Notes: generated by a model not told the origin, from the sequence alone. A stretch of 64,000 bases of DNA from an uncultured Alphaproteobacteria bacterium (GCA_949282205.1 CASDOS010000059.1:6135-70134); one strand, 5' to 3'. Shown: positions 3,519 through 61,244, numbered from the stretch's first letter. Translations and numbers: made by a program.

Positions 3519-3665
3519 GCAAAAAACTCCGGTTGAAAAATATGACCATAAAAAATAAGCAAAAGTTTCAGAAATAAATGTTGATAGAATCAAATAGATA
3601 TTGCGGGTGATAAAGTCTAAATATAGACTGAACAAAAATGGTCATATTTATTCAGAAATAATGAG

Positions 3666-6524: not shown

Positions 6525-6691
6525 TAAACCTCAGTAAAACTATTAGCGAAAATAATCTGCTATAAGAAAACCTACATTTTTTTTTATCAATATGCAAGCA
6601 AAAAGAAGTTATCCAAAACAGAAGTTTAATAATCAAAATCTCCTAGAGAAAAAAATGTAGGTTAAATTGCATAAATAAAGTAGAGGGACAG

Positions 6692-7438
6692 TTGATGGTA
6701 AAACTATCTATATATATGGTTGTATATAACGAAGAATTGCGTATAGAACGCACATTACAAGCCCTGCAAGGAATAGCGGATGAATTAATAATTGTTGATT
6801 CCGGATCAACCGATAAAACTTTAGAAATAGCAAAAAGATATCATGCAAAAATATATTTTCATGAATGGAAGAGTTATTGCGACCAAAAACATTATGCGGA
6901 GAGTTTATGTACAAATGAATGGGTATTATTGCTAGATGCCGATGAAGTCATATCAAAAGAATTATTGGAAGAAATCAAAACAATAAAAAAGTCTCCGCAA
7001 TATAAAGCATATAAAATCAAAATAGTAGATATGTTTCCCAAAGATAAAAAAGCATCAAAATATGCCCGACAATTTAATCCCGTGAGATTATATAGTCGCA
7101 AATATGGCGTAATGCCAGCGGATAAAATGAATAAAGACCGAGTAGAGTTGCAAGAAGGAATAGAGATAGGTCAGATGAAGAGTTTTATATATCATTATTC
7201 TTTTTTGAATATAGAACAAACTCTAGATAAATATAATCGCCATTCAACAGAACTACAAAAGACATGGAAAAAAGAAGGGAAAAAGGTTGGATGGTTTCGT
7301 CTAATAATAGAGTATCCATGGCAATTTTTGCATTATTACATTGGTCACAGATACATTTTTCGAGGTAAACAAGGATTTATATATGCAAGCTTATTAGCCT
7401 ACTTTCGCTTTTTAAAAGTAGCTAAAAGCTTTGAGTAA
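6692..7438 (+). CDS. Glycosyltransferase family 2 (LPS-core WaaE/KdtX-like)
   Basis: LSIYMVVYNEE...IIVDSGSTDKTLEIAKRY. Confidence 0.75.
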   Translation: MMVKLSIYMVVYNEELRIERTLQALQGIADELIIVDSGSTDKTLEIAKRYHAKIYFHEWKSYCDQKHYAESLCTNEWVLLLDADEVISKELLEEIKTIKKSPQYKAYKIKIVDMFPKDKKASKYARQFNPVRLYSRKYGVMPADKMNKDRVELQEGIEIGQMKSFIYHYSFLNIEQTLDKYNRHSTELQKTWKKEGKKVGWFRLIIEYPWQFLHYYIGHRYIFRGKQGFIYASLLAYFRFLKVAKSFE

Positions 7439-7461
7439 ATACAAAATAGAGTAGTTAACAA

Positions 7462-8352
7462 ATGAGAAGATTGATATATTTGAAAGTATCTCTGATAAAA
7501 ATAATATATAGATTAGTTGTACCAATGTTGTATTCAGATAAACAAGAACGTAAGAAACATTTGAAGCAATGGACCACAAAATCAGAAAAGAAATATTTAA
7601 CACGTTATTTAAATGTGTTGGATGCGGAAAGTAATGAAAAAGAAGGAGAAGAATGTCCTAAAATTATCTGGATATGTTGGTTGCAAGGTATGAATAAAGC
7701 ACCGGAAATTGTGAAAAAGTGTTATCAGAGCATACAAAAGTGGTGTCCGGAATATGAAATAAAATTAATAGATAATGAAAATATATCCAGCTATGTTAGT
7801 ATGCCAAAATACATTATAGATAAATATCAAAAAGGATATATAAGTAATACACATTTTTCCGATTTACTGCGCTTGGCACTGTTAGATGAGCACGGAGGTT
7901 ATTGGATAGATGCGACAGTTTATCTAACCGCCCCAATCCCAGAGAAAATACAAAAAAGTCCTTTTTTTGCATATCATTCCGAAGGCTATTTGCATAATAA
8001 CAGTTGGTTCTTGAAATCCAATAAGGGAAATGCTCTAATTCACAATCTCAAGCAATTATTATTTGAATATTGGAGATATGAAAATTCTCTGATAAATTAC
8101 TTTCTATATCATATATTTTTTGACTTAATGATTGAAAGCAATACAAAACTAGCTGAAGAATGGAGAAAAGTTCCAGTACTATATGATGATTGTTATGAAT
8201 TAGAGCATAGTTTTTTTAAGCCATATGAAAAAGAAAAGTGGTTAGAAATCAATCAAAAAACACATATTCATAAATTAAGTTATAAGTATGACAAAAATAA
8301 AAACATACAGGGAAGTTTTTTAGAATATTTATTAAATGATAAATTGGACTAA
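7462..8352 (+). CDS. GT32 / capsular-polysaccharide-synthesis (Caps_synth)-like glycosyltransferase
   Basis: IIWICWLQG ... SDLLRLALLDEHGGYWIDATVYL (Gly_transf_sug-type DxD region). Confidence 0.6.
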   Translation: MRRLIYLKVSLIKIIYRLVVPMLYSDKQERKKHLKQWTTKSEKKYLTRYLNVLDAESNEKEGEECPKIIWICWLQGMNKAPEIVKKCYQSIQKWCPEYEIKLIDNENISSYVSMPKYIIDKYQKGYISNTHFSDLLRLALLDEHGGYWIDATVYLTAPIPEKIQKSPFFAYHSEGYLHNNSWFLKSNKGNALIHNLKQLLFEYWRYENSLINYFLYHIFFDLMIESNTKLAEEWRKVPVLYDDCYELEHSFFKPYEKEKWLEINQKTHIHKLSYKYDKNKNIQGSFLEYLLNDKLD

Positions 8353-8358
8353 AGATAA

Positions 8359-9414
8359 ATGCGCATAGTAAATGTAATGATAAGTAAAATGAACGGGGGT
8401 GTTGAGCAAGCCTTCTTGGATTATAATTCAGCGTTAAAAATGCATAATCATCAAATTTTAGCGATTGTTGACATAAAAACTAAAGTAAAATCATTTATAC
8501 AAGATACACAGTATATAACAATAAATTTTAATCAATATAATTATTTTTTGATTTTTAAATTGTATAAAACAATCAAAAAGTTTCAAGCAGACATAATCAT
8601 AACACATAGTAAAAAAACAATCCCAATATTGCGTATAGTGGCAAAATGGTTAAAGATTCCACTGATAGGAGTGGCACATAATGATAAATATAAAAAGATA
8701 AATCAATGCGATGCTATTTTTTCAATAACGGAATATCAAAAAGAGTTTTTTATCCAGAAAGGATATCCCAAAGAGAACATATATGTGATTCCTAATATGA
8801 TAAAAGGCAAAATAGAGTATAAAGAAAAGATATGGCATCATCTTCCGGTAATAGGTAGTATGGGAAGATTTGATCCAATGAAAGGTTTTGATACATATTT
8901 GAATGCACTCGCTTTATTACGAAAAGAAGGAATCGAGTTTAAGGCTGTTTTAGGCGGAGATGCCCAAAAAGAATATCCGAAGGAAAAGAGGAAATTGGAA
9001 CAAATAATCATAGATAATCAGTTGGATAAAAGTGTAACATTATGTGGATGGGTAACAGATAAAGCAAAGTTTTTTCAAGATATAGATATATTTGTTCTGC
9101 CATCAAATTATGAGCCGTTTGGGATTGTTTTGCTAGAGGCGATGCAACATTCAACACCAATCGTAACCTCAGGTGCGGAAGGTCCCAAAGAAATATTTGG
9201 AAAAAACAAAGACTGCGTTTATATGTTTGAAAAAGGCAACGTTGAAGATTTAGCAAACAAATTAAGACAAGCTCTTAAAAATAGAGAGGAAACCAATCAA
9301 AAAGCTAAAAAATCATGGCAACTATGTGAGAAAGAATATAACATAACACAGGTATCAGAAAAGATAGATAAAATGATACAAAAGGTAATAATACAAAATG
9401 GTAAAGAAATATGA
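8359..9414 (+). CDS. Glycosyltransferase family 4
   Basis: EPFGIVLLEAMQHSTPIVTS motif. Confidence 0.8.
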   Translation: MRIVNVMISKMNGGVEQAFLDYNSALKMHNHQILAIVDIKTKVKSFIQDTQYITINFNQYNYFLIFKLYKTIKKFQADIIITHSKKTIPILRIVAKWLKIPLIGVAHNDKYKKINQCDAIFSITEYQKEFFIQKGYPKENIYVIPNMIKGKIEYKEKIWHHLPVIGSMGRFDPMKGFDTYLNALALLRKEGIEFKAVLGGDAQKEYPKEKRKLEQIIIDNQLDKSVTLCGWVTDKAKFFQDIDIFVLPSNYEPFGIVLLEAMQHSTPIVTSGAEGPKEIFGKNKDCVYMFEKGNVEDLANKLRQALKNREETNQKAKKSWQLCEKEYNITQVSEKIDKMIQKVIIQNGKEI

Positions 9415-10153
9415 CATTATTTATTCATTAGGTTCAAATTGTGCGTGTGCACTATACTTGAATAAGAATAATTTACGAAATACATCAGGTCCTCTGGACT
9501 GGGTTGTTGGGCTTGATTTTAAGCAAAAAATAGACTTAATATTAAATGATTTTAAGGAATACTGCAACTTAGAAGATTTAGAGATAATAACATCAAAGAA
9601 TGAATGCAACCCCCATATTTCGTGTAAAAATAAAAAAAATGGGTGTTATTTTTTTCATGATTTTCCAATGAATGTTCCTTTAGAAACATCATACCACCAA
9701 GTTGCTGAGAAATACGAAAGAAGAATTAAAAGATTTTATGATAATATATATACTAAAGAAAAAGTACTTTTAGTATGGTTCAGCTTAGACATAGAGACAC
9801 CGCTAGAAGACATAAAGCAAGCAAGCGAAAAGCTAAACAAAAAATTTGGAAAAGAGATAAATTTGCTATGTATAGAGCATAATGAAAATTTATCGGAAAA
9901 AGAAATAAAAATTCAAAAGTTATCTAAAAATGTCACCAAAATAGAATTATATGCTAAAAATCATGAAAACATAGAAGGATTTAGTAAAGGGAATGTAAAA
10001 AAGTGCAACAAAATATTTAAGCAATATGCGCTAAAACAGCCATTTGCTAAAGTTGTCAAGAGACAGGTAATAAAAATTTTATGTAATTTAATACCTATAA
10101 AGAGTTTAAGAAAAAAGTGTCGTAATCAATGGTTATATGAGAAAAATAAGTAG
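9398..10153 (+). CDS. DUF1796-type putative papain-like protein
   Basis: N-terminal YSLGSNCACALYL...GPLDWV signature. Confidence 0.5.
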   Translation: MVKKYDIIYSLGSNCACALYLNKNNLRNTSGPLDWVVGLDFKQKIDLILNDFKEYCNLEDLEIITSKNECNPHISCKNKKNGCYFFHDFPMNVPLETSYHQVAEKYERRIKRFYDNIYTKEKVLLVWFSLDIETPLEDIKQASEKLNKKFGKEINLLCIEHNENLSEKEIKIQKLSKNVTKIELYAKNHENIEGFSKGNVKKCNKIFKQYALKQPFAKVVKRQVIKILCNLIPIKSLRKKCRNQWLYEKNK

Positions 10154-11129
10154 AAGAAAACAAATGCCTAAAATATCAATAATCATACCTGTCTATAATG
10201 CTGAAAAATATCTGGAAATGACATTAAATTCTGTGCGAACTCAGACATTTACGGATTACGAAGTAATTTGCATGAATGATGGATCTACAGATAAATCATT
10301 ACAAATATTAGAAAAATTTGCAAAACAAGATAATCGCTTCAAAATATATAGCCAATCTAATGCAGGAGGTAGTGAGGCTCGCAATAATGCGATAAAAAAG
10401 GCAACTGGTGAATATATTGCATTTTTAGATAATGATGACATATATCACCCAAATTACTTAGAAATATTGTTTTATAATATAGAAAACTACGAAGCAGATG
10501 TTAGTTGTTGTTCATATGTACGTTTTGAAGGAGAGGAGGACTATAAATTTAATCAAGATAAGGATACTAAAAAGGGCATATTTGTTTCAGAAAATCCTTT
10601 TATAGATAAATTTAAGCGAAAAAAGAAAATAGAAACCCTGATGTGGACCAAGCTATATAAAAAAGAATTACTTCAAGAAATAAAATTCTCAGAAAAATTA
10701 CCCGCAATCAATGATATATTATTTAATGTAGAAATATTATTGAAGAGTAAAAAGTTAGTGCAGACGAAAGAAAAATTAATTGCATATCGCATAATTCCAA
10801 CTTCTCAAACAATGAAAAAATTAACATTAAATCGCTTAGAAGAATATAGAAACCTAGCCATAGAGTTAAAACAATTATCAAAAAGATATGAAAAATATAA
10901 CAATATAATAGAAAAAATAACCGCCAACTACATCTATGGAATGTATGTAACAGAGGTAAAAGACAAATATAAAATAGCAGATGAACCAGAACTATACAAA
11001 AAAATCGCACAAAATATAGCAGCCCTAAAAGAACAGAAAATATTTAATCCGCAAAAATTAAAACTTAGTCGACAAATACAATTATTTTTCTTTTTAAGAA
11101 AGATAAAGAAAACAAATGAAGCAGAATAA
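10137..11129 (+). CDS. Glycosyltransferase family 2
   Basis: ISIIIPVYNAEKYLEMTLNSVRTQTFTDYEVICMNDGSTDKS. Confidence 0.8.
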   Translation: MRKISRRKQMPKISIIIPVYNAEKYLEMTLNSVRTQTFTDYEVICMNDGSTDKSLQILEKFAKQDNRFKIYSQSNAGGSEARNNAIKKATGEYIAFLDNDDIYHPNYLEILFYNIENYEADVSCCSYVRFEGEEDYKFNQDKDTKKGIFVSENPFIDKFKRKKKIETLMWTKLYKKELLQEIKFSEKLPAINDILFNVEILLKSKKLVQTKEKLIAYRIIPTSQTMKKLTLNRLEEYRNLAIELKQLSKRYEKYNNIIEKITANYIYGMYVTEVKDKYKIADEPELYKKIAQNIAALKEQKIFNPQKLKLSRQIQLFFFLRKIKKTNEAE

Positions 11130-11139
11130 TAACAAACAA

Positions 11140-11162
11140 AAAAGCTTCCCGAAGGAAGCTTT
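11140..11162. terminator. Bidirectional hairpin terminator
   Basis: aaagcttccttcgggaagcttt palindrome between convergent genes. Confidence 0.5.
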
Positions 11163-11165
11163 ATA

Positions 11166-12041
11166 TTAAAACTCAACAACTTGAATAATTTCACCCTTTT
11201 GGTAAATAACCACTTTGGTTAATTCGCCTTTAGAATTAAATTCCTTAGCAGTTCCGTGCAACAAATCATTTTTACGCTGAGCTAAAATTTTAGGTTTTTC
11301 ATTTTCATAGTAAGAATATGCCGGACCTTCACGTTTGCCGTTAACATATTCCACATAAGTAGTCAAATGATTTTCAGGAGTATAAAAGCGGGAAGGACCA
11401 TGCAATTTTCCTTTTTTGTAAGTAATGGAAGATTTAACGGCTCCGTTGTCGTAATATTCCTCAAACACGCCGTTTTTCTTTCCGTTAATATAGCTCCCCT
11501 TGCGTAACAAATCGCCATTAGGATAATAAGCCAATTGAGCGCCGGAGAGTTTTCCCTTACGAAAATAACTTATTTCCTGTTCAGTTCCATTTTGATAAAA
11601 AGTAATTGTTTTTCCATGAGGAAGACCATTTTTATATTCTGCCTCCATAATCACGTTTCCATTATCATCAAAAGCCTTATAAAGACCGCTGATTTTTCCG
11701 TTTACAAAGTGGATTTCTTCTTTAAGTTGCATATTATCGGCATAATTTTGATAAACACCTGTAATAGGTTTATGAGCGGCATCATAGCGAATACCGTTTT
11801 CTTCAAAAGAAGTGTCATCGGAATAAAGGGTAGTGAGTTGCGCAACATGGCAAGCGGAAAGCAAAAAAAGCACCGCGCCTAAACCGGCGATTTTCCGAAC
11901 AGCAGATTTACTCTGAGCCAGTTTTCGTAAAATCAATTTTCGCAAAGCAATTTTTCTGGTCGCAAATTTCCGCGCAGCGGTAGTTAAAATATCCTTTTTC
12001 GCCATATTACACCTCATCAAAAGCACAAGAAAAATAGTCAT
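11166..12041 (-). CDS. MORN-repeat (YwqK-like) protein, N-terminally membrane anchored
   Basis: Repeated YxNGxxxxExxYxxGKxxG modules; hydrophobic segment near the N-terminus. Confidence 0.7.
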   Translation of the reverse strand: MTIFLVLLMRCNMAKKDILTTAARKFATRKIALRKLILRKLAQSKSAVRKIAGLGAVLFLLSACHVAQLTTLYSDDTSFEENGIRYDAAHKPITGVYQNYADNMQLKEEIHFVNGKISGLYKAFDDNGNVIMEAEYKNGLPHGKTITFYQNGTEQEISYFRKGKLSGAQLAYYPNGDLLRKGSYINGKKNGVFEEYYDNGAVKSSITYKKGKLHGPSRFYTPENHLTTYVEYVNGKREGPAYSYYENEKPKILAQRKNDLLHGTAKEFNSKGELTKVVIYQKGEIIQVVEF

Positions 12042-15426: not shown

Positions 15427-15792
15427 ATGGAAAATTTTATTATGAGTAGTTCCGTACTGCTGAATGCTCAGTGTTGCGGAGGAGATGTTTGGGGGATTTT
15501 ATTATTAGCCTGCTTTCTTTTTCTGCTTGCCGCAATCATAGCAAAGATAGGAGATGTTCGTTGTGAAAGCAAACGACAAGAAAAATTTGCTGATTATTGT
15601 CAGAAACGCTCAGCTTTTTATCGCAAGGAACGAGAAAAAGTTCTGAATTATTACCGAGAAAAGGCTCAAAAAAACGGTCATCTTACGGATAAAGAGCTTG
15701 AGGAAGCCCGTTTCTACATGGAAATTAACAGTGGTGGTGAAGATGGCTGGGAAGAAGAATATAAAAAATTCCGTCAAGAATTACATTGTTAA
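15427..15792 (+). CDS. Small membrane protein (1 TM + charged C-terminal tail)
   Basis: Hydrophobic WGILLLACFLFLLAAIIA; own TTGACA/TACAAT promoter and a terminator of the same type as the J-gene cassette. Confidence 0.5.
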   Translation: MENFIMSSSVLLNAQCCGGDVWGILLLACFLFLLAAIIAKIGDVRCESKRQEKFADYCQKRSAFYRKEREKVLNYYREKAQKNGHLTDKELEEARFYMEINSGGEDGWEEEYKKFRQELHC

Positions 15793-15810: not shown

Positions 15811-15845
15811 AAACGCCTCTTGAGAAGGGGCGTTTTGCTTTTTAA
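15811..15845 (+). terminator. Rho-independent terminator (cassette copy 1)
   Basis: aaacgcctcttgagaaggggcgttttgcttttt. Confidence 0.65.
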
Positions 15846-15871
15846 AAAGATGCTACGAATAAACAAAAAAC

Positions 15872-15930
15872 TTGACAAAAGAGAAGAGGGTGTTAGGATA
15901 ATGCCAATTAACAATTATTATGAACCTAAA
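15872..15930 (+). promoter_or_regulatory. Conserved promoter (TTGACA-16-TGnTAGGAT) plus conserved leader CAATTAACAATTATTATGAACCTAAAA with uORF ATG at 15920
   Basis: Near-identical copies upstream of all four J-domain genes. Confidence 0.6.
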
Positions 15931-15941
15931 ACCTTTATGTT

Positions 15942-17474
15942 ATGAAAAGATTATTATTTATTTTGAGCTGTCTAATGATAGTCAGCCTAAGCTATGCAGA
16001 CACAGTTTACGGAAGGTTAGAAAAACTGGAAGGAAACTGTGCAACGGTACATGTATATCCAGACAATGGTACACCGCAAGTTGTTACGTTAAATTTAAAA
16101 GACACCGAAGATAAATATCTGCACCAACCGCTACGAGCAGAGGGGCAAGGTGTTTTTGTTTATAATGGCAATACTTTAAGTCAAGTAGATGAAGATGCAG
16201 CAAGGCGTATTTTACAGGTAACCTTACATGAAATTTTTTGTATGACTTTGGTTCTAGTGGGGGTTGCGTTCATTTTATCTTTGAAATTTAAGCGTATAGA
16301 AGCACAGATTATAAGTAAAAAAAGGCAACTGCTGGTAAAAATACAATATGGCGTACTTTGCCTTTCTTTATTTATAACAGCTAATGGTGTTTTAGGCCTT
16401 TGGTTAAGACCTCAATTAGAGCTAGTGAATTATGGTAGAGTATCCCGACTTGAGCGGTGGGCATATATTATAGAAGATGAAAATGGTAATAAACAAATTC
16501 ATGATATATCGGGATCTGTTTGGGATATCTATTATTACGCCGATGGAACCTGGGGCAATCCGACTACGGAAGGTGGAATAATTAAAGGTGGAAACAGTTA
16601 TAAGCTCTATCAAAGCTTCGGCAAAGATAGAAAAGTGATAGAAGCAACGATACGGTACGTTAATGAAAAAACAGCCTTTCAGCAGCGCGTATTAAAATAC
16701 CTAATGTTTATCGTATGGATATGTACTTTTATACTGTATATACTACCTCTATTAAGGGCAAGAATTAGACATCTGAGGCGTACCAAGGTAGAAACGGCTC
16801 GTCTGAAAGTAGAAAAAAAACGTCAAGAGCAAAAACTCAAAAAACAGCCTGAGTATCGCCGCTTTTGTGAAGAGCTTGTGACAAAGTTCTGGGTTGACTA
16901 TTTAGACAGTCCTGAAGAAACATCGGTATTGTTGGCACGTCTAAAGGTAGCCTTGCAGAACAGCGGTTATCTAAGATGGCAAGAAGAGTTTTATGATGTC
17001 ATAGCCATGCGAGCAAAAGAAAGTACTCGCCCACCGAAAGAGCAACGTCAAAAAGCATCAAATCAAGTAAAAGACGAAGAGTTGGACGATATTCGGATAA
17101 ACTTCAATGGTTTGTTTGTAACGGCTGCGCAGTATCGGATATTAAGCTCTGATATCAACGCTCAATCATTAAGTCTGGAAGATTTGATAATTTACTGTCG
17201 CAAGTTGGCGGAAAAGATGCCGGAGTTTCGGGATTTCTTGAAAGGAAAAATTATCAGAACGCCTCAAGGTTTAATTGATAACAATGAGGCTTATGCGTTG
17301 TTTGGACTGACGTTTGAAACATTGACGGAGGATAAATTGAAACAAGTGTATCGTTATTTTGCACAACTTTATCATCCTGACAAAAATCCAAATGCTAAGG
17401 CAAAGGAAATGTTTCAAAAAGTACAAAGTTACCATGCATATTTAAAAGAGGAACTCCGCCGCAAAGTTGCTTAA
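15942..17474 (+). CDS. Membrane J-domain protein (signal peptide + ~3 TM N-terminal region, C-terminal DnaJ-type J domain)
   Basis: C-terminal ...AYALFGLTFETLTEDKLKQVYRYFAQLYHPDKNPNAKAKEMFQKVQSYHAYLKEELRRKVA (HPD motif). Its C-terminal 220 aa are paralogous to the next gene. Confidence 0.8.
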   Translation: MKRLLFILSCLMIVSLSYADTVYGRLEKLEGNCATVHVYPDNGTPQVVTLNLKDTEDKYLHQPLRAEGQGVFVYNGNTLSQVDEDAARRILQVTLHEIFCMTLVLVGVAFILSLKFKRIEAQIISKKRQLLVKIQYGVLCLSLFITANGVLGLWLRPQLELVNYGRVSRLERWAYIIEDENGNKQIHDISGSVWDIYYYADGTWGNPTTEGGIIKGGNSYKLYQSFGKDRKVIEATIRYVNEKTAFQQRVLKYLMFIVWICTFILYILPLLRARIRHLRRTKVETARLKVEKKRQEQKLKKQPEYRRFCEELVTKFWVDYLDSPEETSVLLARLKVALQNSGYLRWQEEFYDVIAMRAKESTRPPKEQRQKASNQVKDEELDDIRINFNGLFVTAAQYRILSSDINAQSLSLEDLIIYCRKLAEKMPEFRDFLKGKIIRTPQGLIDNNEAYALFGLTFETLTEDKLKQVYRYFAQLYHPDKNPNAKAKEMFQKVQSYHAYLKEELRRKVA

Positions 17475-17493
17475 AAGCTCAGTTAGAATAAGC

Positions 17494-17530
17494 AAAACGC
17501 CTCTTTCAAAAGGGGCGTTTTGCTTTTTTA
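17494..17530 (+). terminator. Rho-independent terminator (cassette copy 2)
   Basis: aaaacgcctctttcaaaaggggcgttttgcttttttaaaaag. Confidence 0.65.
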
Positions 17531-17558
17531 AAAAGATGCCGACAATAAACAAAAAAAC

Positions 17559-17633
17559 TTGACAAAAGGACAAGTCGTGCTAGGATAACACCAATTAACA
17601 ATTATTATGGACTTAAAAATGTGTAAATTATGA
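17559..17633 (+). promoter_or_regulatory. Promoter TTGACA-16-TGCTAGGAT plus conserved leader; 8-codon uORF (MDLKMCKL) whose TGA overlaps the J-gene ATG as ATGA
   Basis: Leader CAATTAACAATTATTATGGACTTAAAA at 17592-17618. Confidence 0.6.
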
Positions 17634-18361
17634 GAATATTTAACGAAAAAACAATGAGCGATTCGGAACGTGAAAGAGCTAGAAAGAAAGTTGAAACAGA
17701 AGTCAAAAAACAAGCGGCGGAGAAACAAGCAGAAAGTTACCGCCTTTGTGAAAAGTTGACAGAAAGTTTCTGGAAAGATTTTTGGAACGGCGCAGAACTG
17801 TCCATACTAGTCAACCGTATAGAGTTTGCATTGCAAAACAGCGGTTACAAAGGATGGAAAGAAGAATTTTTCGATGTAATCGGTGAAAAAATCATAGAAA
17901 TACCGGAACAGTTCATTCACAACAGAGAGAAACTCAACGGGAGTGAACAGGGTTTTGACATAGATAATCTCGGCGATATTCGTATAAACTTTAATGGTTT
18001 GTTTGTAACGGCTGCGCAGTATCATATATTGAGCTGCAATGCGAAAGCACAGTCACTATGCAAGGAAGATTTACTCGTATTGTGTCGTAAGTTGGCGGAA
18101 AAGATGCCGGAATTTGCCAATTTCAAAGAGGAGCATTCAATTCAGCTCTATGTTGCGACAAAATCCACCAATGAAGCCTATGCGTTGTTCGGTTTGACAT
18201 TTGAAACACTAACGGAAACAAGTCTGAAACAAGCGTATCGCCGTTTGGCGCAGATGTATCATCCGGATAAAAACAAAGAAGCCTATGCAGCAGCAATATT
18301 CCAAAAAGTGCAGAAGTATCACACATATCTGAAAAGTGAACTCCGCCGCAAAGTTGCTTAA
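17630..18361 (+). CDS. Soluble J-domain protein (paralog of the C-terminal half of the preceding gene)
   Basis: DIRINFNGLFVTAAQY...LCRKLAEKMPEF... shared with 15942-17474; C-terminal J domain with YHPDKN. Confidence 0.8.
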   Translation: MRIFNEKTMSDSERERARKKVETEVKKQAAEKQAESYRLCEKLTESFWKDFWNGAELSILVNRIEFALQNSGYKGWKEEFFDVIGEKIIEIPEQFIHNREKLNGSEQGFDIDNLGDIRINFNGLFVTAAQYHILSCNAKAQSLCKEDLLVLCRKLAEKMPEFANFKEEHSIQLYVATKSTNEAYALFGLTFETLTETSLKQAYRRLAQMYHPDKNKEAYAAAIFQKVQKYHTYLKSELRRKVA

Positions 18362-18375
18362 AAGCTCAGTTAGAA

Positions 18376-18466
18376 TAAGCACAAATGCCTCTTGAGAAAG
18401 GGGCATTTTGCTTTTATAAGCCAAAGAAAAAAGCTGTTCCAAAGAGGAACAGCTTTTTTTTACTGA
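18376..18466. terminator. Two hairpin terminators. The first is cassette-type (aatgcctcttgagaaaggggcatttt); the second is bidirectional (aaaaaagctgttcc-aaagaggaacagcttttttt).
   Basis: Inverted repeats with flanking T- and A-tracts between convergent genes. Confidence 0.6.
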
Positions 18467-18478
18467 GTTTAGAAAAAG

Positions 18479-19903
18479 TTAATTAATAATCCTATCACTA
18501 TATACCCTCCCGGAATAAGCCCCGGTAAGTCGAGAGTGCCGTTCAGGAGCAGAATAGTGCGCACCTTCGCAAGCATAAGTAGTTTCAATCAATTCTTCGA
18601 CAAGTTCTGCAATTTTGTTATATTTTATGCAGGCTTCTGCGACGGAAAGTTTACCTTCTAAGATTTCTTGTCCAAGTTGCGCGACATCAACGCCGTCAAT
18701 TTTAGCGAAACCGGCGGCCGGAAGAGCAAGAATACGTTGCAATTCCACAGAACGATTTTTTTGCAAGGATGTACCGGCAATATTAATCAAGAAATTTTCA
18801 CCCGAAGAGTAAGCATACGCTCTTTTCTTACCAAGTTTACTCAAGAACTGAGCGGGAAAATCTTTCCCCCAGCGTTCAAAGACTTCCTGCGGTGCGAGAA
18901 TAATCTGTTCATCCCCACAGTCACGGAAGAAGAAACTGGTTCTGACCATCTGAGCATCCAACAATTCTCCTTTTCCGGAAATACAAAACCGTTTGATACC
19001 TTTCCGAGCCATTTGTTGAAGTTTTGTCAAATCTTCCTGACGCACAAGTTGTCGAGCACGATCATACGGTAAATCAGCAAAACCAATTGTTAATTTGATT
19101 TTACAGCGTTTCGTCCGTCCATTTTCGTAAGTAACTTGTTCAAATGTACGCAAATCATCGCTAAGCAAATCGTACTGTCCGTTACGAACGGCCTGAACGA
19201 AAGCGGCAAAGACGGAATGCAAATTTCCGGACATTTCAAATTTTTCATTACACTGAATACCATGTCCTTGAATAGCGCAATTAAACGGAACATAGATATC
19301 CGTATGTTCATCTAAAGCAATAATAAACGAACGCGCCTCCTGATCGACCAAGACATTCATTTTGGCAGGAAGTCCATCAAGAACATTAGGGAAGAGAGTC
19401 TTCGCCTGAGCAACTGGGACAGGTTTCCATCCGGTTAATGGCGGCCGACGAAACATATTAACAATAGTAATCGGTTTCACGGGGCAATACTCACGTTTTC
19501 CGTTGCTGTAATAGTTGACAACATAATCGGAATAGAGTTTTGCCATTGGGACATTAAGCGCCATAATCATCAAATCCTGAAGCGAATACTTTTCGGTATC
19601 AAACATAAGGTTTTGATTAATTCTAAGCCCCCAAACCCGTTCGGAATAGACCTGAACGGCGGGAGATTTACTGTCATACAGAGGCAAAAGACCGGTATTT
19701 GAAGCTAAGAGCTTTGGGTTCTGAGCTCTGACCGGAAATTTCGAAGATCTTCTCTGTAGTTCAGCGACGATAGCCGGATACGAACATTCAGATTTAATAA
19801 CAGCCGTAGAGGACGTTTGGTTCAATCCATTTTGGTCCAAAAGACGAAACACAGCATCAAAGCACAAAGTGCTCATTTTTGCTAAACTCATGTTTTTTTC
19901 CAT
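18479..19903 (-). CDS. Conserved hypothetical ~474-aa protein, 'large paralog A', family unknown
   Basis: Start moved to the conserved MEKN. The 50-aa extension in the track is a translation of the AT-rich promoter, which is shared with J gene 3. Paralogous to 21753-23183 (IKSECSYPxIV, KPITxVNxFxRPP, YVPFNC, KNGQY). Confidence 0.6.
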   Translation of the reverse strand: MEKNMSLAKMSTLCFDAVFRLLDQNGLNQTSSTAVIKSECSYPAIVAELQRRSSKFPVRAQNPKLLASNTGLLPLYDSKSPAVQVYSERVWGLRINQNLMFDTEKYSLQDLMIMALNVPMAKLYSDYVVNYYSNGKREYCPVKPITIVNMFRRPPLTGWKPVPVAQAKTLFPNVLDGLPAKMNVLVDQEARSFIIALDEHTDIYVPFNCAIQGHGIQCNEKFEMSGNLHSVFAAFVQAVRNGQYDLLSDDLRTFEQVTYENGRTKRCKIKLTIGFADLPYDRARQLVRQEDLTKLQQMARKGIKRFCISGKGELLDAQMVRTSFFFRDCGDEQIILAPQEVFERWGKDFPAQFLSKLGKKRAYAYSSGENFLINIAGTSLQKNRSVELQRILALPAAGFAKIDGVDVAQLGQEILEGKLSVAEACIKYNKIAELVEELIETTYACEGAHYSAPERHSRLTGAYSGRVYSDRIIN

Positions 19904-19959
19904 AATAGTAAAAATTAATAAGTGAAACATAGTTATAATTAGGTAGCGTCTAACATAAG

Positions 19960-20076
19960 ACAGTATAAACAGAATGTCAACACATTTGTCAAAATAGCGC
20001 ACAAAAAAACTTGACAAAATGTAAGAAGTAGATAAGATAAAAGCAATTAACAATTATTATGGACTTAAAACTTTAA
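19960..20076. promoter_or_regulatory. Divergent promoter region: minus-strand TTGACA-17-TTTATA for large paralog A; plus-strand TTGACA-16-TAAGAT plus conserved leader and 5-codon uORF (MDLKL) for J gene 3
   Basis: Hexamers read directly; leader copy at 20044-20070. Confidence 0.55.
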
Positions 20077-20081
20077 GGATT

Positions 20082-20888
20082 ATGACAAAATTATTTGTGA
20101 TTATCGTTGTATTGTTCGTTATTGTTGCTTTTGTGGTAGCGCATATATGGAATAAGGCTAGAAAAGAGCGAGAGCAAAAAATAAGACGAATAATAGAAGA
20201 ACAAGAAAAAAAAGAACGTGAAAGACAAGAATTTGAACGACAGGAACGCGAACGTTTGGAACGTGAACGCCAAGAGCGCTTAAAAGAAGAAGCTATGAAC
20301 AGAATGCGTGAACAAAAAGCACGTGAACGCCAAGAGCGCTTAAAAGAAGAAGCTATGAACAGAATGCGTGAACAAAAAGCACGTGAAGAAGCAGAACGTA
20401 TAAAAAACAAGTATGCGAAAGCTAAAGTTTTCTTTCAGGGCATATGGGTAACGCAGCAACAGTTGTCGTATTTGGCTAATTTTTCAGAAATAAGCAGTAT
20501 GCAAGGCAAGAAATTACGAGATTTCTTAAGTAATTTAGGAAAGACCAATCCTCTCTTTGCAGATTTTACCCAAGAAGCTGAAAACAGTCAAAAAGAAAAG
20601 GAAAAAGCAAAGTGGGACAGTTATAGCCAAACGAAACAAAATCATGGTTATAGAACAACTTCCACAAACACTGGTCAGGCCCAAAGCGCAAACGTCAATT
20701 CTTTCTATCAAATGTTCGGCTTAACTCCAGAAACACTGACATCCGAAAGTTTAAAAAGAGCTTATCGAGAGTTGGTTAAAAAGTATCATCCGGATAAAAA
20801 TAAAGAGCCGGATGCTGCCGAAAAATTTCAAAGAGTACAGAGGTGTTATAAATATCTCAAAGGAGAATTACACCGCAAGACAGCCTAA
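20082..20888 (+). CDS. TM-anchored coiled-coil J-domain protein
   Basis: N-terminal TM helix, ERQERLKEEAMNRMREQKAR duplicated, C-terminal J domain (YHPDKNKEPDAAEKFQRVQRCYKYLKGELHRKTA). Confidence 0.8.
   Translation: MTKLFVIIVVLFVIVAFVVAHIWNKARKEREQKIRRIIEEQEKKERERQEFERQERERLERERQERLKEEAMNRMREQKARERQERLKEEAMNRMREQKAREEAERIKNKYAKAKVFFQGIWVTQQQLSYLANFSEISSMQGKKLRDFLSNLGKTNPLFADFTQEAENSQKEKEKAKWDSYSQTKQNHGYRTTSTNTGQAQSANVNSFYQMFGLTPETLTSESLKRAYRELVKKYHPDKNKEPDAAEKFQRVQRCYKYLKGELHRKTA
20261..20380 (+). repeat. Perfect 60-bp tandem duplication (2 copies) inside the J-domain gene
   Basis: acgtgaacgccaagagcgcttaaaagaagaagctatgaacagaatgcgtgaacaaaaagc x2, 100% identical, in frame. Confidence 0.9.
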
Positions 20889-20908
20889 CCGTTCAATCAA
20901 TTAAGTAC

Positions 20909-20942
20909 AAACGCCTCTTGAAAAGGGGCGTTTTGCTTTTTA
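20909..20942 (+). terminator. Rho-independent terminator (cassette copy 3)
   Basis: aaacgcctcttgaaaaggggcgttttgcttttt. Confidence 0.65.
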
Positions 20943-20970
20943 AAGAAGCATCAAGTGTTGCACAAAAAAC

Positions 20971-21030
20971 TTGACAAAATAAAAGAAGGCGATATGATAA
21001 AAGCAATTAACAATTATTATGGACTTAAAA
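20971..21030 (+). promoter_or_regulatory. Promoter TTGACA-16-TATGAT plus conserved leader with uORF ATG at 21019
   Basis: Leader CAATTAACAATTATTATGGACTTAAAA. Confidence 0.6.
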
Positions 21031-21040
21031 TTTAAGGATT

Positions 21041-21691
21041 ATGGCAATCGTTATGATTTATATGCTTTTGATTTTAGTGTTGGCTGCTATAGTTTTTTTC
21101 TTATATCTGATATCCAAGACAATAAGAGAAGATAATGAATACTACAAAAGGCAAGCTGAACAAGAGGCAAAATTCCGCCGAAATGCTAAAGAAAAAAGAA
21201 AACAAGATACTGAAAATATACATCAAAACATAGATGATAGTTTTGAAGAATTACATAAAAGTCTTGAAGAATTACATAATAGTTTTGAAGAATTACATAA
21301 AAGTCTTGAAGAATTACATAATAGTTTTGAAGAATTACATAAAAGTCTTGAAGAATTACTGAAGAGTTTGGAGGAATTAAGAGCGGTTCTGGAAGAAAAG
21401 CAGCGTGCCAGACAAGAATATTGCCGAAATAGTTACAATAACAACAGTAATCGTGGCAGCAATAGTAGTAATGGCGAGAGAACTTACAAAAGGTTAGAAG
21501 GCGTTTATAAAACTTTTGACTTAACTCCCTCGACATTAACCGAAGCAAGCTTAAAGCAATCTTATCGTCGCTTGGTTCAGCTTTATCATCCAGATAGAAA
21601 CAAAGAACTGAATGCAACTGAAAAATTTCAAAAAATACAGTCGTATTACAGTATCTTACAGAAAGAATTGAAAAGTAAAAATGCTAGATGA
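21041..21691 (+). CDS. TM-anchored repeat-containing J-domain protein
   Basis: N-terminal TM; SFEELHKSLEELHN repeats; C-terminal J domain YHPDRNKELNATEKFQKIQSYY. Confidence 0.8.
   Translation: MAIVMIYMLLILVLAAIVFFLYLISKTIREDNEYYKRQAEQEAKFRRNAKEKRKQDTENIHQNIDDSFEELHKSLEELHNSFEELHKSLEELHNSFEELHKSLEELLKSLEELRAVLEEKQRARQEYCRNSYNNNSNRGSNSSNGERTYKRLEGVYKTFDLTPSTLTEASLKQSYRRLVQLYHPDRNKELNATEKFQKIQSYYSILQKELKSKNAR
21239..21358 (+). repeat. 42-bp (2 x 21 bp) in-frame tandem repeats, ~2.8 copies
   Basis: agttttgaagaattacataaaagtcttgaagaattacataat repeated. Confidence 0.85.
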
Positions 21692-21696
21692 AACAA

Positions 21697-21730
21697 AAAA
21701 AAGACGTTCCCTCAAGGAAACGTCTTTTTT
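21697..21730. terminator. Bidirectional hairpin terminator
   Basis: aaaaaaaagacgtttccttgagggaacgtcttttttt palindrome. Confidence 0.6.
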
Positions 21731-21752
21731 TATGATACACGATTAATATGAC

Positions 21753-23183
21753 CTAGTCACTAGGGTGAATGCGACCGGTAATGCATCCAATTCTTTCCGG
21801 AGAAGAGAAATGCACTCCTTCTACAGGCATGGTTGATTCAAAATGATAGGCCAGCGTGTCAAACGCGTTGAAAAGAACTCTACCTAATCCAACCGCGGCA
21901 CAACCTGCGGCACTAACACCGACTTTAGCTACTTGAACACTTAAATGAGATGAAACTTTGGCTCCAACTTTTGCAATACGAGCAATTTTCTTAAGATTTT
22001 TAAACTGTTCAAGTTCATGTCCGGAGATATTGCGAATATAATCGTTGCTATATTGACAATAATCAAATTTTCGGTCTTGCACCAAAAAGTTTAAGACGTC
22101 TTCAGAAAAATCGCGTCCCCAAGATTCATACACAAACTCAGGCATCAAAAGCACACGTCGTTTAGTTGCTTTGAAATTTTTACTGTTGATGATGTTATCA
22201 GAACAGATAATATTTCCTTTCACATCAACAGAGAACAATCTTTCCCCACGCAAAAAACGATTTTTTAATTCAAACTGATCTTGCACCAGAGGAAGAGCCT
22301 GTTCAAATGTCAAATCAACATATCCAACCTTAAGTTCCAACTCATTTGTACCGGAATAAAGGGTAGAAGAGTAGGGTTCTCTGGTATAGTAACCACGTTC
22401 AAAGCAGTGAAGATTTGGATTTTGTGCCACTTGCTCATATTGTCCGTTTTTAAGCATGAGAGCAAACTCATGGAATAAGGGTTGCAAATTACCGAAACCG
22501 TTAAGTTTTTCAACAATCGGATCGCAGAAATCCGTATTAATCGGATTGCCGTTAATCATACAGTTAAACGGTACATAGTGATCAGAAGTTTCATCCTGAG
22601 CAATAACCAGAGTTTCAGCATTAGGGTCAGTCAGCAAGCGCCAATTTTTAGATAAGACATCCGGATAATCTTGAGCGAGCTTAGCAGTTTCTTCAGGGAA
22701 GAAGCGTTTGGCGTCATCAAAATCAATTCTGAACCAATCAGCCATCGGAGGTCTTTTAAAACGATTAACCAAGGTAATCGGTTTCGCATTTTTTACCACG
22801 CGTCGTCCGTTGGCATGATAGCAAACAATTTTGTCGGAAAAGACCTTTGCCATAGGAATATTAAGGGCATATCTCATTAATGAACCCAAGGCATAGTTAC
22901 CGGCATCAAAAGCAAGCATATTACCGATTTTTAACCCCCAGATACGTTCACGCAGAACAACCGGAGAAGTTTCCGTTCCAACTTTTGCCGGAAGCAAATT
23001 TGCATTAACCTCAGGCAATTCGATTACCTTATCATGTAAAGCCGGAACAATTTCGGGATAAGAGCACTCAGACTTAATCAACGCAATGTTGCAAGATTTT
23101 GGCTGAATTTTTTGCAGTTCAAAAATAGATTGCAGACAAATCCAATAGGCTTGCGCAAGAGTTAAACTTGTATTTTTTTCCAT
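21753..23183 (-). CDS. Conserved hypothetical ~476-aa protein, 'large paralog B'
   Basis: Start at the conserved MEKN. Paralog of 18479-19903; its own TTGACT-16-TATACT promoter is on the minus strand. Confidence 0.6.
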   Translation of the reverse strand: MEKNTSLTLAQAYWICLQSIFELQKIQPKSCNIALIKSECSYPEIVPALHDKVIELPEVNANLLPAKVGTETSPVVLRERIWGLKIGNMLAFDAGNYALGSLMRYALNIPMAKVFSDKIVCYHANGRRVVKNAKPITLVNRFKRPPMADWFRIDFDDAKRFFPEETAKLAQDYPDVLSKNWRLLTDPNAETLVIAQDETSDHYVPFNCMINGNPINTDFCDPIVEKLNGFGNLQPLFHEFALMLKNGQYEQVAQNPNLHCFERGYYTREPYSSTLYSGTNELELKVGYVDLTFEQALPLVQDQFELKNRFLRGERLFSVDVKGNIICSDNIINSKNFKATKRRVLLMPEFVYESWGRDFSEDVLNFLVQDRKFDYCQYSNDYIRNISGHELEQFKNLKKIARIAKVGAKVSSHLSVQVAKVGVSAAGCAAVGLGRVLFNAFDTLAYHFESTMPVEGVHFSSPERIGCITGRIHPSD

Positions 23184-23361
23184 AAAAGTAAAAATTAATA
23201 GTGAAACAAAAAGATAAATAAAACACAAGAAGTATAGGATAGTTAGACAAAAAGTCAAGTAAAAAATAAAATTAGAAACTCGAGAAAACATCATTGACAA
23301 AAGAAGAAAAAAACTTCACAATAATAAGAAAGGAAAGAAAAAGAGGAAAGGAGAGGACACG

Positions 23362-24797: not shown

Positions 24798-25982
24798 ATG
24801 ACGCGCGAGGAATTAAAACAAGATTTAAAGAAAGCTGCAATAACCGCAATGACAGTACTGTCTACGTTAAACGCGCCAACAGCACAAGCCTCCGAACAAG
24901 CGCCAATGGAAGACGATAAAATCATCGAACGCACAGAATACGTTGTCCCCAATAAATATCCCCAAGATGACCGAGTTGCTGTCAGAGAAATAGATATAAC
25001 AGTCCCTAATGCGGGTTCACGTGTTAAAATAACAGGACAAGAAGAAAGTTACAAAGAATATACCCCAGAGTTAAGTGAAGAAAATAAAGTAGAACAACAG
25101 CGAGAAGAGTATGATAGAAAGAACCGCCTGCGTTTAAAAGAAGATTTAAAAATGCAAGCCAATAATCACGAAGCAAACGCTTTACAGCGCATGTATGGCT
25201 ATGGCAATAATAGTTCATATGGCAATTATCAATATAGCCAAGATGAATATGATAAAAAAGGTCGGGTAACAGAAAACCGAGTACATAGTGGTTTTTATGG
25301 AAACTCTGCAAGTCTGATGAGTGATATAGTTGTAGACGGGCGTCGAGGCAAAGATATATATAAAGATGGTAATAGAGCTTTGGACGATACGTTTGAGGTT
25401 AGACATTTTGATGGTCCGAATAAAAAAGAAACCAGTGTGATTTATACGGATTATAATCGCAGAGGTGAACAAAAAGCAGAATATACAGGTACCTACAGTG
25501 AAGGGAGTGAAAAATATACCAAAGAAAAGGGCGATAAATTTACGGAAGTTTCCTTTGTTGGCGGTAAATATAAAGGTCATGTTAGCGAAGAAGACGCTGA
25601 TGGCGAGATGAAGACTAAAGAATTAAGCGAGCGCAAAGTTAAACGACAGGTAAGAAAGATACGTAATTTATTAGAGCGAAAATTGAAAAAAGAAACCGGT
25701 GCAAAAAGCATAGAAGGATATGAAGATTTAGCAATACCAAGGGATACCAGAACACAAGTTCCATTAAGTATAGGATTTGATGGAGATTTCTCTCAAGAAA
25801 AATACGATGCCACCCAAGCAGAGATAACTCAAGAAAACTCAGACTTGACTTCAAAACTAGAAAAAGGCGAGAAGGTTATTGTAACCAAGCGGGAGTCAGA
25901 AGAAACCAAACGCCGAGGTAGTTTGAGCAATGAAGAAATGCGAGAAATTATGCGTCAAAAATTAATCAAGATGCAAGATTAA
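24798..25982 (+). CDS. Secreted highly charged low-complexity protein (K/E/D/Y-rich)
   Basis: Signal peptide ...TAMTVLSTLNAPTAQA; no enzymatic motifs. Confidence 0.5.
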   Translation: MTREELKQDLKKAAITAMTVLSTLNAPTAQASEQAPMEDDKIIERTEYVVPNKYPQDDRVAVREIDITVPNAGSRVKITGQEESYKEYTPELSEENKVEQQREEYDRKNRLRLKEDLKMQANNHEANALQRMYGYGNNSSYGNYQYSQDEYDKKGRVTENRVHSGFYGNSASLMSDIVVDGRRGKDIYKDGNRALDDTFEVRHFDGPNKKETSVIYTDYNRRGEQKAEYTGTYSEGSEKYTKEKGDKFTEVSFVGGKYKGHVSEEDADGEMKTKELSERKVKRQVRKIRNLLERKLKKETGAKSIEGYEDLAIPRDTRTQVPLSIGFDGDFSQEKYDATQAEITQENSDLTSKLEKGEKVIVTKRESEETKRRGSLSNEEMREIMRQKLIKMQD

Positions 25983-26157: not shown

Positions 26158-26976
26158 ATGAATGAACAAGAAATTATGGATTGTAACGTAAAGAATGCGT
26201 ACATTAGGGGACTGGAAAAACATTTTCGTAATACAGCACGCAAGCTCTTTGCCTCAGGCGCCGGTCTGGAGGAAGTACACCGCAAAATTTCGGAACTTCG
26301 TCATCAAAATGACAAATGGCGTCCGCTCAGAGATGAAGAAAAAAAACTTTTGAAAACTTTGGATAATGAGCTACGCAAAGAATGTTATATGGCATTGATG
26401 AGCGGAGGAACATTAGCAAAGATACAAAAGCTCATCAAAGAGCGTCAGCAACAAAGAGCTGTTCGTGCCGTGAAGAAAGAAACCGTCATTCAGATGGAAA
26501 AGAGCATCACGCATCTGCAAAAATTGAAAGTGCAAATCCCGATGGCTTATTTTGAAGTCATGTTTGATTTGGATATTTTCAATGAAGGCAAGAGCACAGA
26601 GGAAGAATATTCAATTTTATCCAAAATGGGGCTTATCATGCTGAGTACCTATGATCCCAAAGGAAAAGGAGAGTATTACAACAAAGTAAGAGCCTTTATG
26701 TTTGCGAAAATAGAAGAAGCCTTTGATAAGGGGATAATTCCTCATCCGCTGATGTTTGAGTTCATGCTCAAAGGCGATTGGATAAGTGAGAATACTTTTA
26801 TGGTGTTGCATATCCACGCCGAAGAGTTAATAGAACGAGGATTAAGCGGAATGTTGGCTCTTCCTCTGGAAAGAATGTACGAAAAAAGAAAAAAGGATGA
26901 AGATCCTCAGCATCCGTTCAGCAAAAGAGAGGAGCACTATTTTATCTCACTGATAAATCTTTTTAAGAAGAAATAG
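26158..26976 (+). CDS. Hypothetical protein
   Basis: ORF only. Confidence 0.45.
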   Translation: MNEQEIMDCNVKNAYIRGLEKHFRNTARKLFASGAGLEEVHRKISELRHQNDKWRPLRDEEKKLLKTLDNELRKECYMALMSGGTLAKIQKLIKERQQQRAVRAVKKETVIQMEKSITHLQKLKVQIPMAYFEVMFDLDIFNEGKSTEEEYSILSKMGLIMLSTYDPKGKGEYYNKVRAFMFAKIEEAFDKGIIPHPLMFEFMLKGDWISENTFMVLHIHAEELIERGLSGMLALPLERMYEKRKKDEDPQHPFSKREEHYFISLINLFKKK

Positions 26977-44641: not shown

Positions 44642-44675
44642 CAAAACTTGTGTAAATAAAGTGCAATGAATTTAT

Positions 44676-49566: not shown

Positions 49567-49612
49567 ATCACTCTCCTAAAATTTAGATATAAAAAAAGTC
49601 CTCCAGCTATTG

Positions 49613-52955: not shown

Positions 52956-52968
52956 CTGTGTTCATTTG

Positions 52969-53985: not shown

Positions 53986-54041
53986 CTGGATACCTCTCTT
54001 TTATTGTGTCCCTAGCAAACAATGAGTTGAAAGTCAAGATT

Positions 54042-54431: not shown

Positions 54432-54432
54432 T

Positions 54433-54957: not shown

Positions 54958-54966
54958 TTTGTTCTC

Positions 54967-56948: not shown

Positions 56949-56962
56949 AGAGTATCCTCTGA

Positions 56963-61228: not shown

Positions 61229-61244
61229 AGGGTATTCCTTTCAC

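Follow-up and report, generated by a model that had tools for sequence, protein, structure and literature searches.

Class C J-domain proteins give Hsp70 its specificity, and most of the bacterial ones have no known client. DjlA has a central TerB-like domain between its transmembrane (TM) helix and its J domain. The partners of AtcJ are otherwise unknown proteins from the same cluster. In auxilin/GAK a membrane-binding part and a client-binding part are followed by a J domain at the extreme C-terminus, which brings Hsp70 to one assembly. Auxilin has been named as an example of class C, and in a large survey the J domain was the only annotated domain in about half of the J proteins that belong neither to class A nor to the canonical type of class B (PMC10410713). 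Here we describe a locus in a 64,000-nucleotide stretch of DNA (the window) from an uncultured Alphaproteobacteria bacterium (GCA_949282205.1, CASDOS010000059.1:6135-70134), in which four genes for proteins with a C-terminal J domain, J1-J4, are interleaved with two genes for large paralogous proteins, L1 and L2. The locus is best explained as two copies of a lineage-specific two-part module, consisting of a membrane J co-chaperone and its cognate L protein.

The six open reading frames (ORFs) were recovered where a preliminary description of the window had placed them. Between 15.4 and 23.3 kb the order is a 121-aa TM protein, J1, J2, L1, J3, J4 and L2, with J1-J4 all on the plus strand and L1 and L2 both on the minus strand. 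Four J genes within 7.5 kb are far beyond chance, and the array is a genuine, non-chance feature. Its features are listed below; domains A and B are two conserved parts of the J proteins other than the J domain.

15427-15792, plus strand: J-less family member, 121 aa, with a TM helix and domain A; ortholog of the 187-191-aa proteins with the order TM, domain A, J
15811-15835, plus strand: terminator-like hairpin, first element of the terminator-promoter-leader cassette
15865-15931, plus strand: J1 promoter (AAAAAACTTGACAAAA ... TAGGAT) and 27-nt leader with two mismatches (leader 15905-15931)
15942-17474, plus strand: J1, 510 aa, with a signal peptide, two periplasmic segments, three TM helices, a charged coil, domains A and B and a C-terminal J domain
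17494-17529, plus strand: terminator-like hairpin after J1, homologous to those at 15811 and 20909 and missed by the pattern scan
17552-17618, plus strand: J2 promoter and exact 27-nt leader (leader 17592-17618)
17630-18361, plus strand: J2, a soluble 243-aa protein carrying domains A and B and a J domain
18383-18459, no single strand: two facing terminator-like hairpins between the convergent J2 and L1
18479-19903, minus strand: L1, 474 aa, type-1 orphan protein
19904-19980, minus strand: L1 leader (common to L2) and promoter-like site at 19980-19952
20004-20070, plus strand: J3 promoter and exact 27-nt leader (leader 20044-20070)
20082-20888, plus strand: J3, 268 aa, with an N-terminal TM helix, an E/R/K/Q-rich coiled coil, domain B, a low-complexity linker and J domain
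20909-20933, plus strand: terminator-like hairpin after J3, nearly identical to the copy at 15811-15835
20964-21030, plus strand: J4 promoter and exact 27-nt leader (leader 21004-21030)
21041-21691, plus strand: J4, 216 aa, with an N-terminal TM helix, a coiled coil, an N/S-rich linker and J domain, without domains A and B
21696-21731, scored on the minus strand: terminator-like hairpin between the convergent J4 and L2, with a 16-pair stem and A and T runs at its sides
21753-23183, minus strand: L2, 476 aa, type-2 orphan protein with the tail motif SSPERIGCITG
23184-23258, minus strand: L2 leader (common to L1) and promoter-like site at 23258-23231

The four C-terminal J domains with intact HPD motifs, alternating with two large paralogs, had been noticed before and were confirmed. 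A Pfam DnaJ domain (PF00226) was found at the end of each of J1-J4, with E-values from 7e-9 to 7e-15 and scores of 36-55 bits against a gathering cut-off of 27.8. Y25, H33-P34-D35 and F47 (E. coli DnaJ numbering) were invariant in J1-J4, and the HPD motif was invariant in relatives as well. The proposed co-chaperone role is supported by J domains that are canonical in this way, scoring above the Pfam threshold and keeping the residues that contact DnaK. Proteins of class C lack the G/F region, the zinc-finger region and the C-terminal beta-sandwich domains of DnaJ; in agreement with this, the DnaJ and CbpA models were matched in the J-domain part alone, and the whole-protein scores fell far under the equivalog cut-offs. 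Judged by sequence, J1-J4 belong to the J-domain family and, by architecture, to class C.

Hydropathy analysis indicated a signal peptide and three TM helices in J1, with strongly positive cytoplasmic flanks (+7 after the third TM helix). In both J3 and J4 a single TM helix at the N-terminus leads into a positively charged stalk rich in E, K, R and Q, and no TM helix was found in J2. Tandem repeats are present in J3 (60 bp, 2.1 copies) and J4 (42 bp, 3.4 copies), and the stalk repeats of both proteins differ in copy number among strains. The signal peptide, TM helices and repeats agree with the architecture originally assigned to the four proteins. As the TM anchors have positive-inside flanks, the J domains are predicted to lie on the cytoplasmic side, which fits a membrane co-chaperone that works on DnaK. 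The periplasmic segments of J1 could, as a speculation, link an envelope signal to the co-chaperone machinery.

It had been claimed that the J domain is the only common part of the four proteins, which turned out to be incorrect. Domain B, about 45 aa upstream of the J domain, is common to J1, J2 and J3 ([FL][NQ]G[ILV][FW][LFV]T..Q ... LAEK.PEF..F), and domain A is common to J1 and J2 (FW.DF...LL.RLK..SGY..W..EF). The features given for the individual N-termini were all seen, but to call these N-termini completely different was an overstatement, as the family is modular, with TM, coiled coil, domain A, domain B and J as its parts. Residues 284-510 of J1, its cytoplasmic half, are 56% identical to J2, and J2 is a duplicate of this half. 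With the non-J region of J2 as query, five near-identical clusters and nothing else were obtained; domains A and B thus have no wider relatives detectable by that search. Apart from J, domain B was the sole conserved domain that recurred in an L-linked J protein at every locus examined, including locus L012 with 50% GC (guanine plus cytosine). The ORF at 15427-15792 has one TM helix and matched the 187-aa J protein at the syntenic position of locus L015 with an E-value of 3e-15. The same position is likewise occupied in L003, L005 and L008. On the strength of the match, this ORF is a fifth family member, in which the J domain has been lost.

J and L genes were mapped with hidden Markov models (HMMs) over 51 loci, comprising 40 assessable close L genes and 11 loci with a distant L relative. 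A family J gene was present within 2 kb of 39 of the 40 close L genes, a count inflated by near-identical gut strains. None of the 11 loci with distant L relatives showed a J gene in flanks of up to 8 kb a side. The preliminary description had called for a survey of co-occurrence and copy number in related genomes, and besides the co-occurrence, copy number was found to vary. Neither a known family for L nor scattered, unlinked djlA/cbpA paralogs emerged: L matched no family in the libraries named below, and the J genes are linked to it. Even with this inflation, J and L were found together in separate lineages, with GC contents of 34-52%, and their surroundings were of at least three unrelated kinds. 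In the slot of the window type an epimerase gene lies on one side and flavoprotein and nitroreductase genes on the other. At L001 the pair, with J and L divergent, stands between a porin/PEMT region and an integrase/zeta-toxin/GH108/methylase region, and at L012 it has sugar-metabolism genes on one side and RtcB with an alpha-2-macroglobulin gene on the other. A linkage that recurs in different neighbourhoods and orientations, and distant L relatives that have no J gene in the flanks covered, both argue for a module of J and L.

Genome and metagenome scans placed the family in uncultured Alphaproteobacteria of the human gut, with many human gut metagenome contigs. The lineage may be RF32 of GTDB. 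The contig of one distant L relative carries GapR, an alphaproteobacterial nucleoid protein. A phage or plasmid origin of L was considered and rejected, as no match was obtained in INPHARED, PLSDB or IMG/VR.

The L proteins fall into two types, and each type is accompanied by its own kind of J protein. Type-1 L (L1 of the window, L001, L005 and L006a, with a mutual identity of 44-57%) always adjoins a J protein in which both domain A and domain B are present. L of type 2 (L2 of the window, L003, L008, L006b and L015) always adjoins a J protein made of TM, coiled coil and domain B. This match between L subtype and J architecture, together with the presence of domain B in the L-linked J protein at every locus examined, is further support for a cognate pair. 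The duplication is old, as the window and UMGS1453 (L006/L014) each contain both module types. The content of the slot varies: type 2 only was found in L003, L007, L008 and the common L015 group, type 1 only in L005, and both types in the window, L009 and L006. The array is made up of two old module types and lineage-specific extra copies. The window holds the fullest array seen, with two modules, the soluble J2, the lineage-specific J4 lacking domain B and the J-less relic.

Divergence is far faster in the modules than in their surroundings. In a comparison with L005, identity was 86-93% for the enzymes encoded at the flanks (FMN reductase, epimerase, carbonic anhydrase and nitroreductase), against 54% for L and 37% for the J1-type protein. 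Compared with L003, the flanks are 92-95% identical, J4 49%, J3 82% and L2 89%. Linkage, copy-number variation and divergence above that of the flanks support the earlier suggestion of a diversifying, linked system. The further suggestion, that the J proteins direct DnaK to different partners or compartments and that L is a client or an effector, is an inference.

A cassette was found upstream of each J gene, consisting of a terminator with a GC stem, a promoter (AAAAAACTTGACAAAA, a spacer and TAnGAT) and a 27-nt leader, CAATTAACAATTATTATGGACTTAAAA; promoters and terminators are called throughout as consensus matches only. This is in line with the claim that the J copies are independently promoted and terminated. 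The leader includes a tandem CAATTA repeat and follows the -10 box of each J gene, ahead of the start codon. Its copies before J2, J3 and J4 are identical and the one before J1 has two mismatches; by chance, not a single copy would be expected. J genes of L003, L004, L005, L007, L008 and L009 are likewise preceded by this leader, and L005 has kept it though its L protein is only about 54-55% identical to L1. Four J genes with a common promoter and leader, the latter kept in other genomes, are another argument for the module.

The J leader is AU-rich and unstructured. An RNA thermometer or other structured element was rejected, as folding was no better than that of shuffled sequences (z from +1.7 to -0.7) and an Rfam scan of the window, the leader included, gave no match. 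The ATG within the leader was also rejected as a true start or a conserved upstream ORF, since frames and stops after MDLK differ among the copies. Unstructured, and with no conserved frame after the internal ATG, the leader is thus a DNA or RNA site and neither a peptide nor a thermometer. L1 and L2 have a common leader of their own, unlike the J leader. The A and T runs beside the stem at 21696-21731 suggest that this hairpin could work in both directions.

Over their whole length, L1 and L2 have an identity of 32% (E 3e-75). HMM scans of both against Pfam, NCBIfam, PHROGs and PADLOC were negative, in agreement with the earlier statement that the large paralogs have no recognisable domain, and none of 30 scanned family members had a Pfam domain. 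The family profile found nothing among PDB sequences up to an E-value of 10, and the predicted fold had no match in BFVD. L is an orphan protein with a predicted fold for which no match was found. A hidden Hsp70 paralog, by analogy with DjlC-HscC, was considered and rejected, as no HSP70 signal was present in the sequence or the fold. A word-indexed search of 5.8 billion proteins with L gave ten clusters, and an exhaustive profile search of 1.84 billion representatives gave 45. About eight of these 45 extend to the C-terminal end of the profile, and the remainder, mostly 350-450 aa long, cover the core alone (approximately residues 80-375). A profile search of the 5.8-billion-protein set with a broad alignment gave no further L relatives among the matches listed.

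AlphaFold prediction of L from a 30-sequence alignment resulted in a mean pLDDT (per-residue confidence) of 77 and a pTM (global fold confidence) of 0.69, with most of the core above 85 and with disorder in the first 80 and the last approximately 35 residues. In L1 a confident alpha/beta core (80-375), C-terminal helices and a disordered tail were predicted. L2 has a core as in L1 and a Gly/Ala-rich amphipathic segment ahead of the tail. Across the wide family W91, Y131, G135, R137, F171, F232, G274, A283 and W345 are near-invariant, a pattern unlike that of an enzyme active site. All close homologs have the tail motif S-x-P-x-R-x(2-4)-[LIM]-T-G, and some distant ones have it too, either complete or in a looser version. 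What lies between the core and this motif is helical in type 1 and Gly/Ala-rich and amphipathic in type 2. Some relatives, of 581 and 556 aa, have a long hydrophobic Gly/Ala/Val stretch at this place, and in others the segment is replaced by a true TM tail anchor.

The relatives of 581 and 556 aa are encoded at L039 (7998-9743) and L013 (3963-5633), and their Gly/Ala/Val-rich C-terminal regions of approximately 70-150 residues are glycine-zipper-like. The L013 protein ends in the SxPxR...LTG tail motif and the L039 protein is without it. No J gene was present in the flanks examined at either locus; a Cas1-like ORF beside L039 was judged by eye only. The distant relatives P0040 and P0027, at L048 (8001-12300) and L049 (8001-11423), are each followed by an orphan on the same strand (820 and 706 aa) and each adjoin an Ldh-family gene, maybe a different conserved pairing of the ancestral L core.

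We estimate at about 0.5 the probability that class C J co-chaperones bring DnaK to a cognate L protein at the inner membrane. The J proteins would be anchored in the inner membrane with the C-terminal J domain in the cytoplasm, where the HPD motif is expected to stimulate the ATPase of the housekeeping Hsp70, DnaK. Domain B, joined by domain A in type 1, may serve as an adaptor that binds L. DnaK would in this way be focused on L at the membrane face and could assist in remodelling, assembly or disassembly, or insertion. The L tail S-x-P-x-R-x(2-4)-L-T-G is a candidate docking peptide for Hsp70 or for the J protein. A J protein beside a dedicated partner is moreover an established theme (PMC8215388; PMC6715715), which favours this reading.

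Several observations weigh against it. The only exception to the linkage, a close L homolog at L051 (8001-9506; 446 bits, tail motif present), stands without a J gene over 8 kb, and a tblastn search for a J remnant there found none. The J and L genes are convergent or divergent, each with a promoter-like site and a terminator, and do not form an operon. The modules diverge much faster than their flanks, which would be unusual for a housekeeping chaperone-client pair. The near-invariant positions of L are hydrophobic or structural apart from one arginine, and conserved polar or catalytic residues are lacking. Some distant relatives that have no neighbouring J gene carry the tail motif as well, and it is therefore not specific to the J link. 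Finally, the proposed adaptor is not open to all J proteins, as those of the J4 type and of the 187-aa type have no domain B.

The fast divergence could also point to a conflict module, either anti-phage defence or a toxin/immunity pair, the main alternative, which we regard as possible but unlikely. L would be the effector and might act on membranes by means of the Gly/Ala-rich segment near its C-terminus. DnaK, or its availability, would be used or sensed by the membrane J proteins, with L kept inactive until infection or another insult shifts chaperone availability. It is equally doubtful that the locus is a chaperone-gated conflict system of a new kind, where L, an effector of novel fold, attacks the membrane with its Gly/Ala-rich C-terminal part and is held or triggered by the membrane J proteins via Hsp70, and where phages or competitors drive the diversification and exchange of modules at a chromosomal hot spot. 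One fixed slot with variable content (type 1, type 2 or both), L and J at 54% and 37% identity beside enzymes at 86-93% in L005, and the repeat-length polymorphism of the J stalks would all suit such a system. So would the integrase, zeta toxin, GH108 gene and methylase that adjoin the L001 pair, and the Gly/Ala/Val-rich hydrophobic C-terminal regions or true TM tails of type-2 and distant L proteins. According to one report, host DnaJ acts as a mediator when a bacterial NLR-related protein senses phage (PMC12169576), and predicted conflict systems with a component typically fused to a DnaJ domain have been described (PMC7159879). Against this, L1, L2, J1, J2 and J3 had no match in PADLOC-DB v2 and J4 had weak coiled-coil matches only, L was absent from the phage, plasmid and IMG/VR collections searched, and no recognisable nuclease, protease, NADase or pore-former domain was found in L. 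Most genomes have ordinary redox and sugar-metabolism flanks and no defence island, and the module is present in nearly every sampled member of a common gut lineage, so it looks core and not accessory. The lack of catalytic-type conserved residues across the wide L family would fit a binding protein, and L might then be a CbpM-like modulator that gates the access of J to DnaK, the J proteins having other clients. The gene for a specific inhibitor beside a J protein gene has a precedent in cbpA-cbpM (PMC8215388), and the match of L subtype to J subtype is compatible with it. We consider this reading improbable, as L, with about 475 aa and an unmatched predicted fold, has nothing in common with the small CbpM (PMC8215388), the J and L genes are not co-transcribed, and L relatives with no J gene in flanks of up to 8 kb suggest an ancestral role of L that is independent of J.

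It is also improbable that J and L lack any functional link and are co-inherited neighbours in a slowly rearranging region, with local tandem duplication of unrelated, fast-evolving genes. Most loci belong to a small number of gut species that are close relatives and have an identical gene order, which makes the 39 linked cases heavily non-independent, the genes have separate promoters and terminators, and the close L gene at L051 has no J neighbour. The pair is nevertheless kept in at least three unrelated neighbourhoods, both convergent and divergent, and it persists at 34-52% GC, with all other surroundings changed in L001 and L012. The module types were also duplicated as J+L units, with the L subtype following the J architecture. 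HopI1 of Pseudomonas syringae carries a C-terminal J domain, and this position resembles that in the array. The J proteins, and perhaps L, might accordingly be effectors that are sent into a eukaryotic host to hijack Hsp70, a reading that we consider very improbable. J-domain effectors are mentioned in PMC6802931, related metagenome-assembled genomes (MAGs) are labelled "uncultured Rickettsiales", and an ankyrin-repeat protein is encoded three genes from one distant L relative. The N-terminal TM anchors with positive-inside flanks and the polytopic J1 with its signal peptide indicate the bacterium's own inner membrane instead. The J domains retain bacterial DnaJ-like contact residues, no secretion-system genes were found among the scanned window genes, and the organisms are gut-metagenome MAGs with nothing that points to intracellular life.

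In this locus the gene arrangement points to a candidate client or partner for an entire J subfamily, namely an orphan protein that travels with membrane J proteins. This raises the testable question of whether a bacterial membrane J protein delivers DnaK to one dedicated partner, and to what end. If the conflict reading is true, a chaperone-gated mechanism would be added to bacterial immunity. A rapidly evolving hot spot is moreover marked by the module, in an uncultured human gut lineage that is functionally almost unexplored. Its very narrow taxonomic range limits the significance of the J-L module.

Beyond the array, the window has two further orphan ORFs, at 24798-25982 (394 aa) and 26158-26976 (272 aa), with no match in Pfam, NCBIfam or PHROG. 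They are 55% and 61% identical to their counterparts in L005, where flanking enzymes are 86-93% identical. A prophage tail module occupies 49000-64000, with a GC content of 0.45-0.50 against 0.35-0.40 elsewhere in the window, and includes genes for a tape measure protein (56963-59581, minus strand), a tip attachment J-like protein (50730-52955, minus strand) and a tail fibre (54967-56466, minus strand). A large serine recombinase (35034-36587, plus strand) and a Dcm-type cytosine methylase (39270-40448, minus strand) are maybe the boundary of a mobile element. Very low GC (0.27-0.32) was observed at 6000-12000 and 42000-46000. Glycosyltransferase ORFs (2451-5428) lie directly upstream of the former, and an ORF with a CDP-glycerol glycerophosphotransferase domain (45086-46375) was found inside the latter. 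These stretches look like surface-polysaccharide loci gained horizontally.

The preliminary description did not recognise the locus as any described system, and none was found in the libraries or the literature searched. Its statement that membrane J proteins normally occur once per genome is inaccurate; more than one is nothing exceptional, as E. coli has DjlA, DjlB and DjlC (PMC8215388). DjlA resembles J1, J3 and J4, though not J2, in its N-terminal TM anchor, and the array in its C-terminal cytoplasmic J domain with HPD and its presumed work with DnaK. The NCBIfam model PRK09430 was matched with only 24-26 bits, against a cut-off of 162, and in the linker and J domain only. No TerB-like domain is present, as J1 and J2 had no Pfam match beyond DnaJ and J3 and J4 only coiled-coil noise. 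The array differs further in its coiled-coil stalks, the novel domains A and B, four to five paralogs and a linked orphan gene. DjlB/DjlC-HscC of E. coli are likewise paralogous membrane J proteins clustered with a partner gene (PMC8215388). Those are tail-anchored beside an Hsp70 paralog, whereas the array proteins have an N-terminal anchor and a C-terminal J domain, and L has no HSP70 signature.

HscB-IscU-HscA offers a possible analogy, with a class C J protein whose non-J domain binds one client that has a short Hsp70-binding peptide and is encoded nearby. There is no sequence relationship, however, the locus has no dedicated Hsp70 gene, and the client family L would be novel. CbpA-CbpM is similar in that a J protein gene lies beside the gene for a protein that acts specifically on the J protein. 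In contrast to the array proteins, CbpA is a soluble, DNA-binding class B protein and CbpM a small inhibitor from the same operon, while L is large, has an unmatched predicted fold and is transcribed separately. AtcJ, which acts with AtcABC in Shewanella cold adaptation, is also a short class C J protein with a specific function in a J co-chaperone network (PMC6715715). It is soluble, its J domain precedes a 21-aa C-terminal extension, and its partner proteins are unrelated. The array proteins scored 22-23 bits with the AtcJ model NCBIfam NF050028, against a cut-off of 150.

The domain order of the array J proteins matches that of auxilin/GAK, which may be taken as an analogy; those proteins are eukaryotic, without sequence relationship, and have clathrin as a known client. 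The GAP1-N2 GTPase conflict systems (PMC7159879) resemble the array in having a J domain fused to a non-chaperone protein in a diversifying neighbourhood. Their defining feature is a GTPase gene accompanied by HSP70 and GrpE genes of its own, none of which was found at the window locus or at the related loci. Given the share of J-only proteins in the survey of PMC10410713, the array J proteins would be ordinary "J-only" entries when taken singly. What is new here is the conserved pairing with an orphan family, the domain A and B modules and the expanding array.

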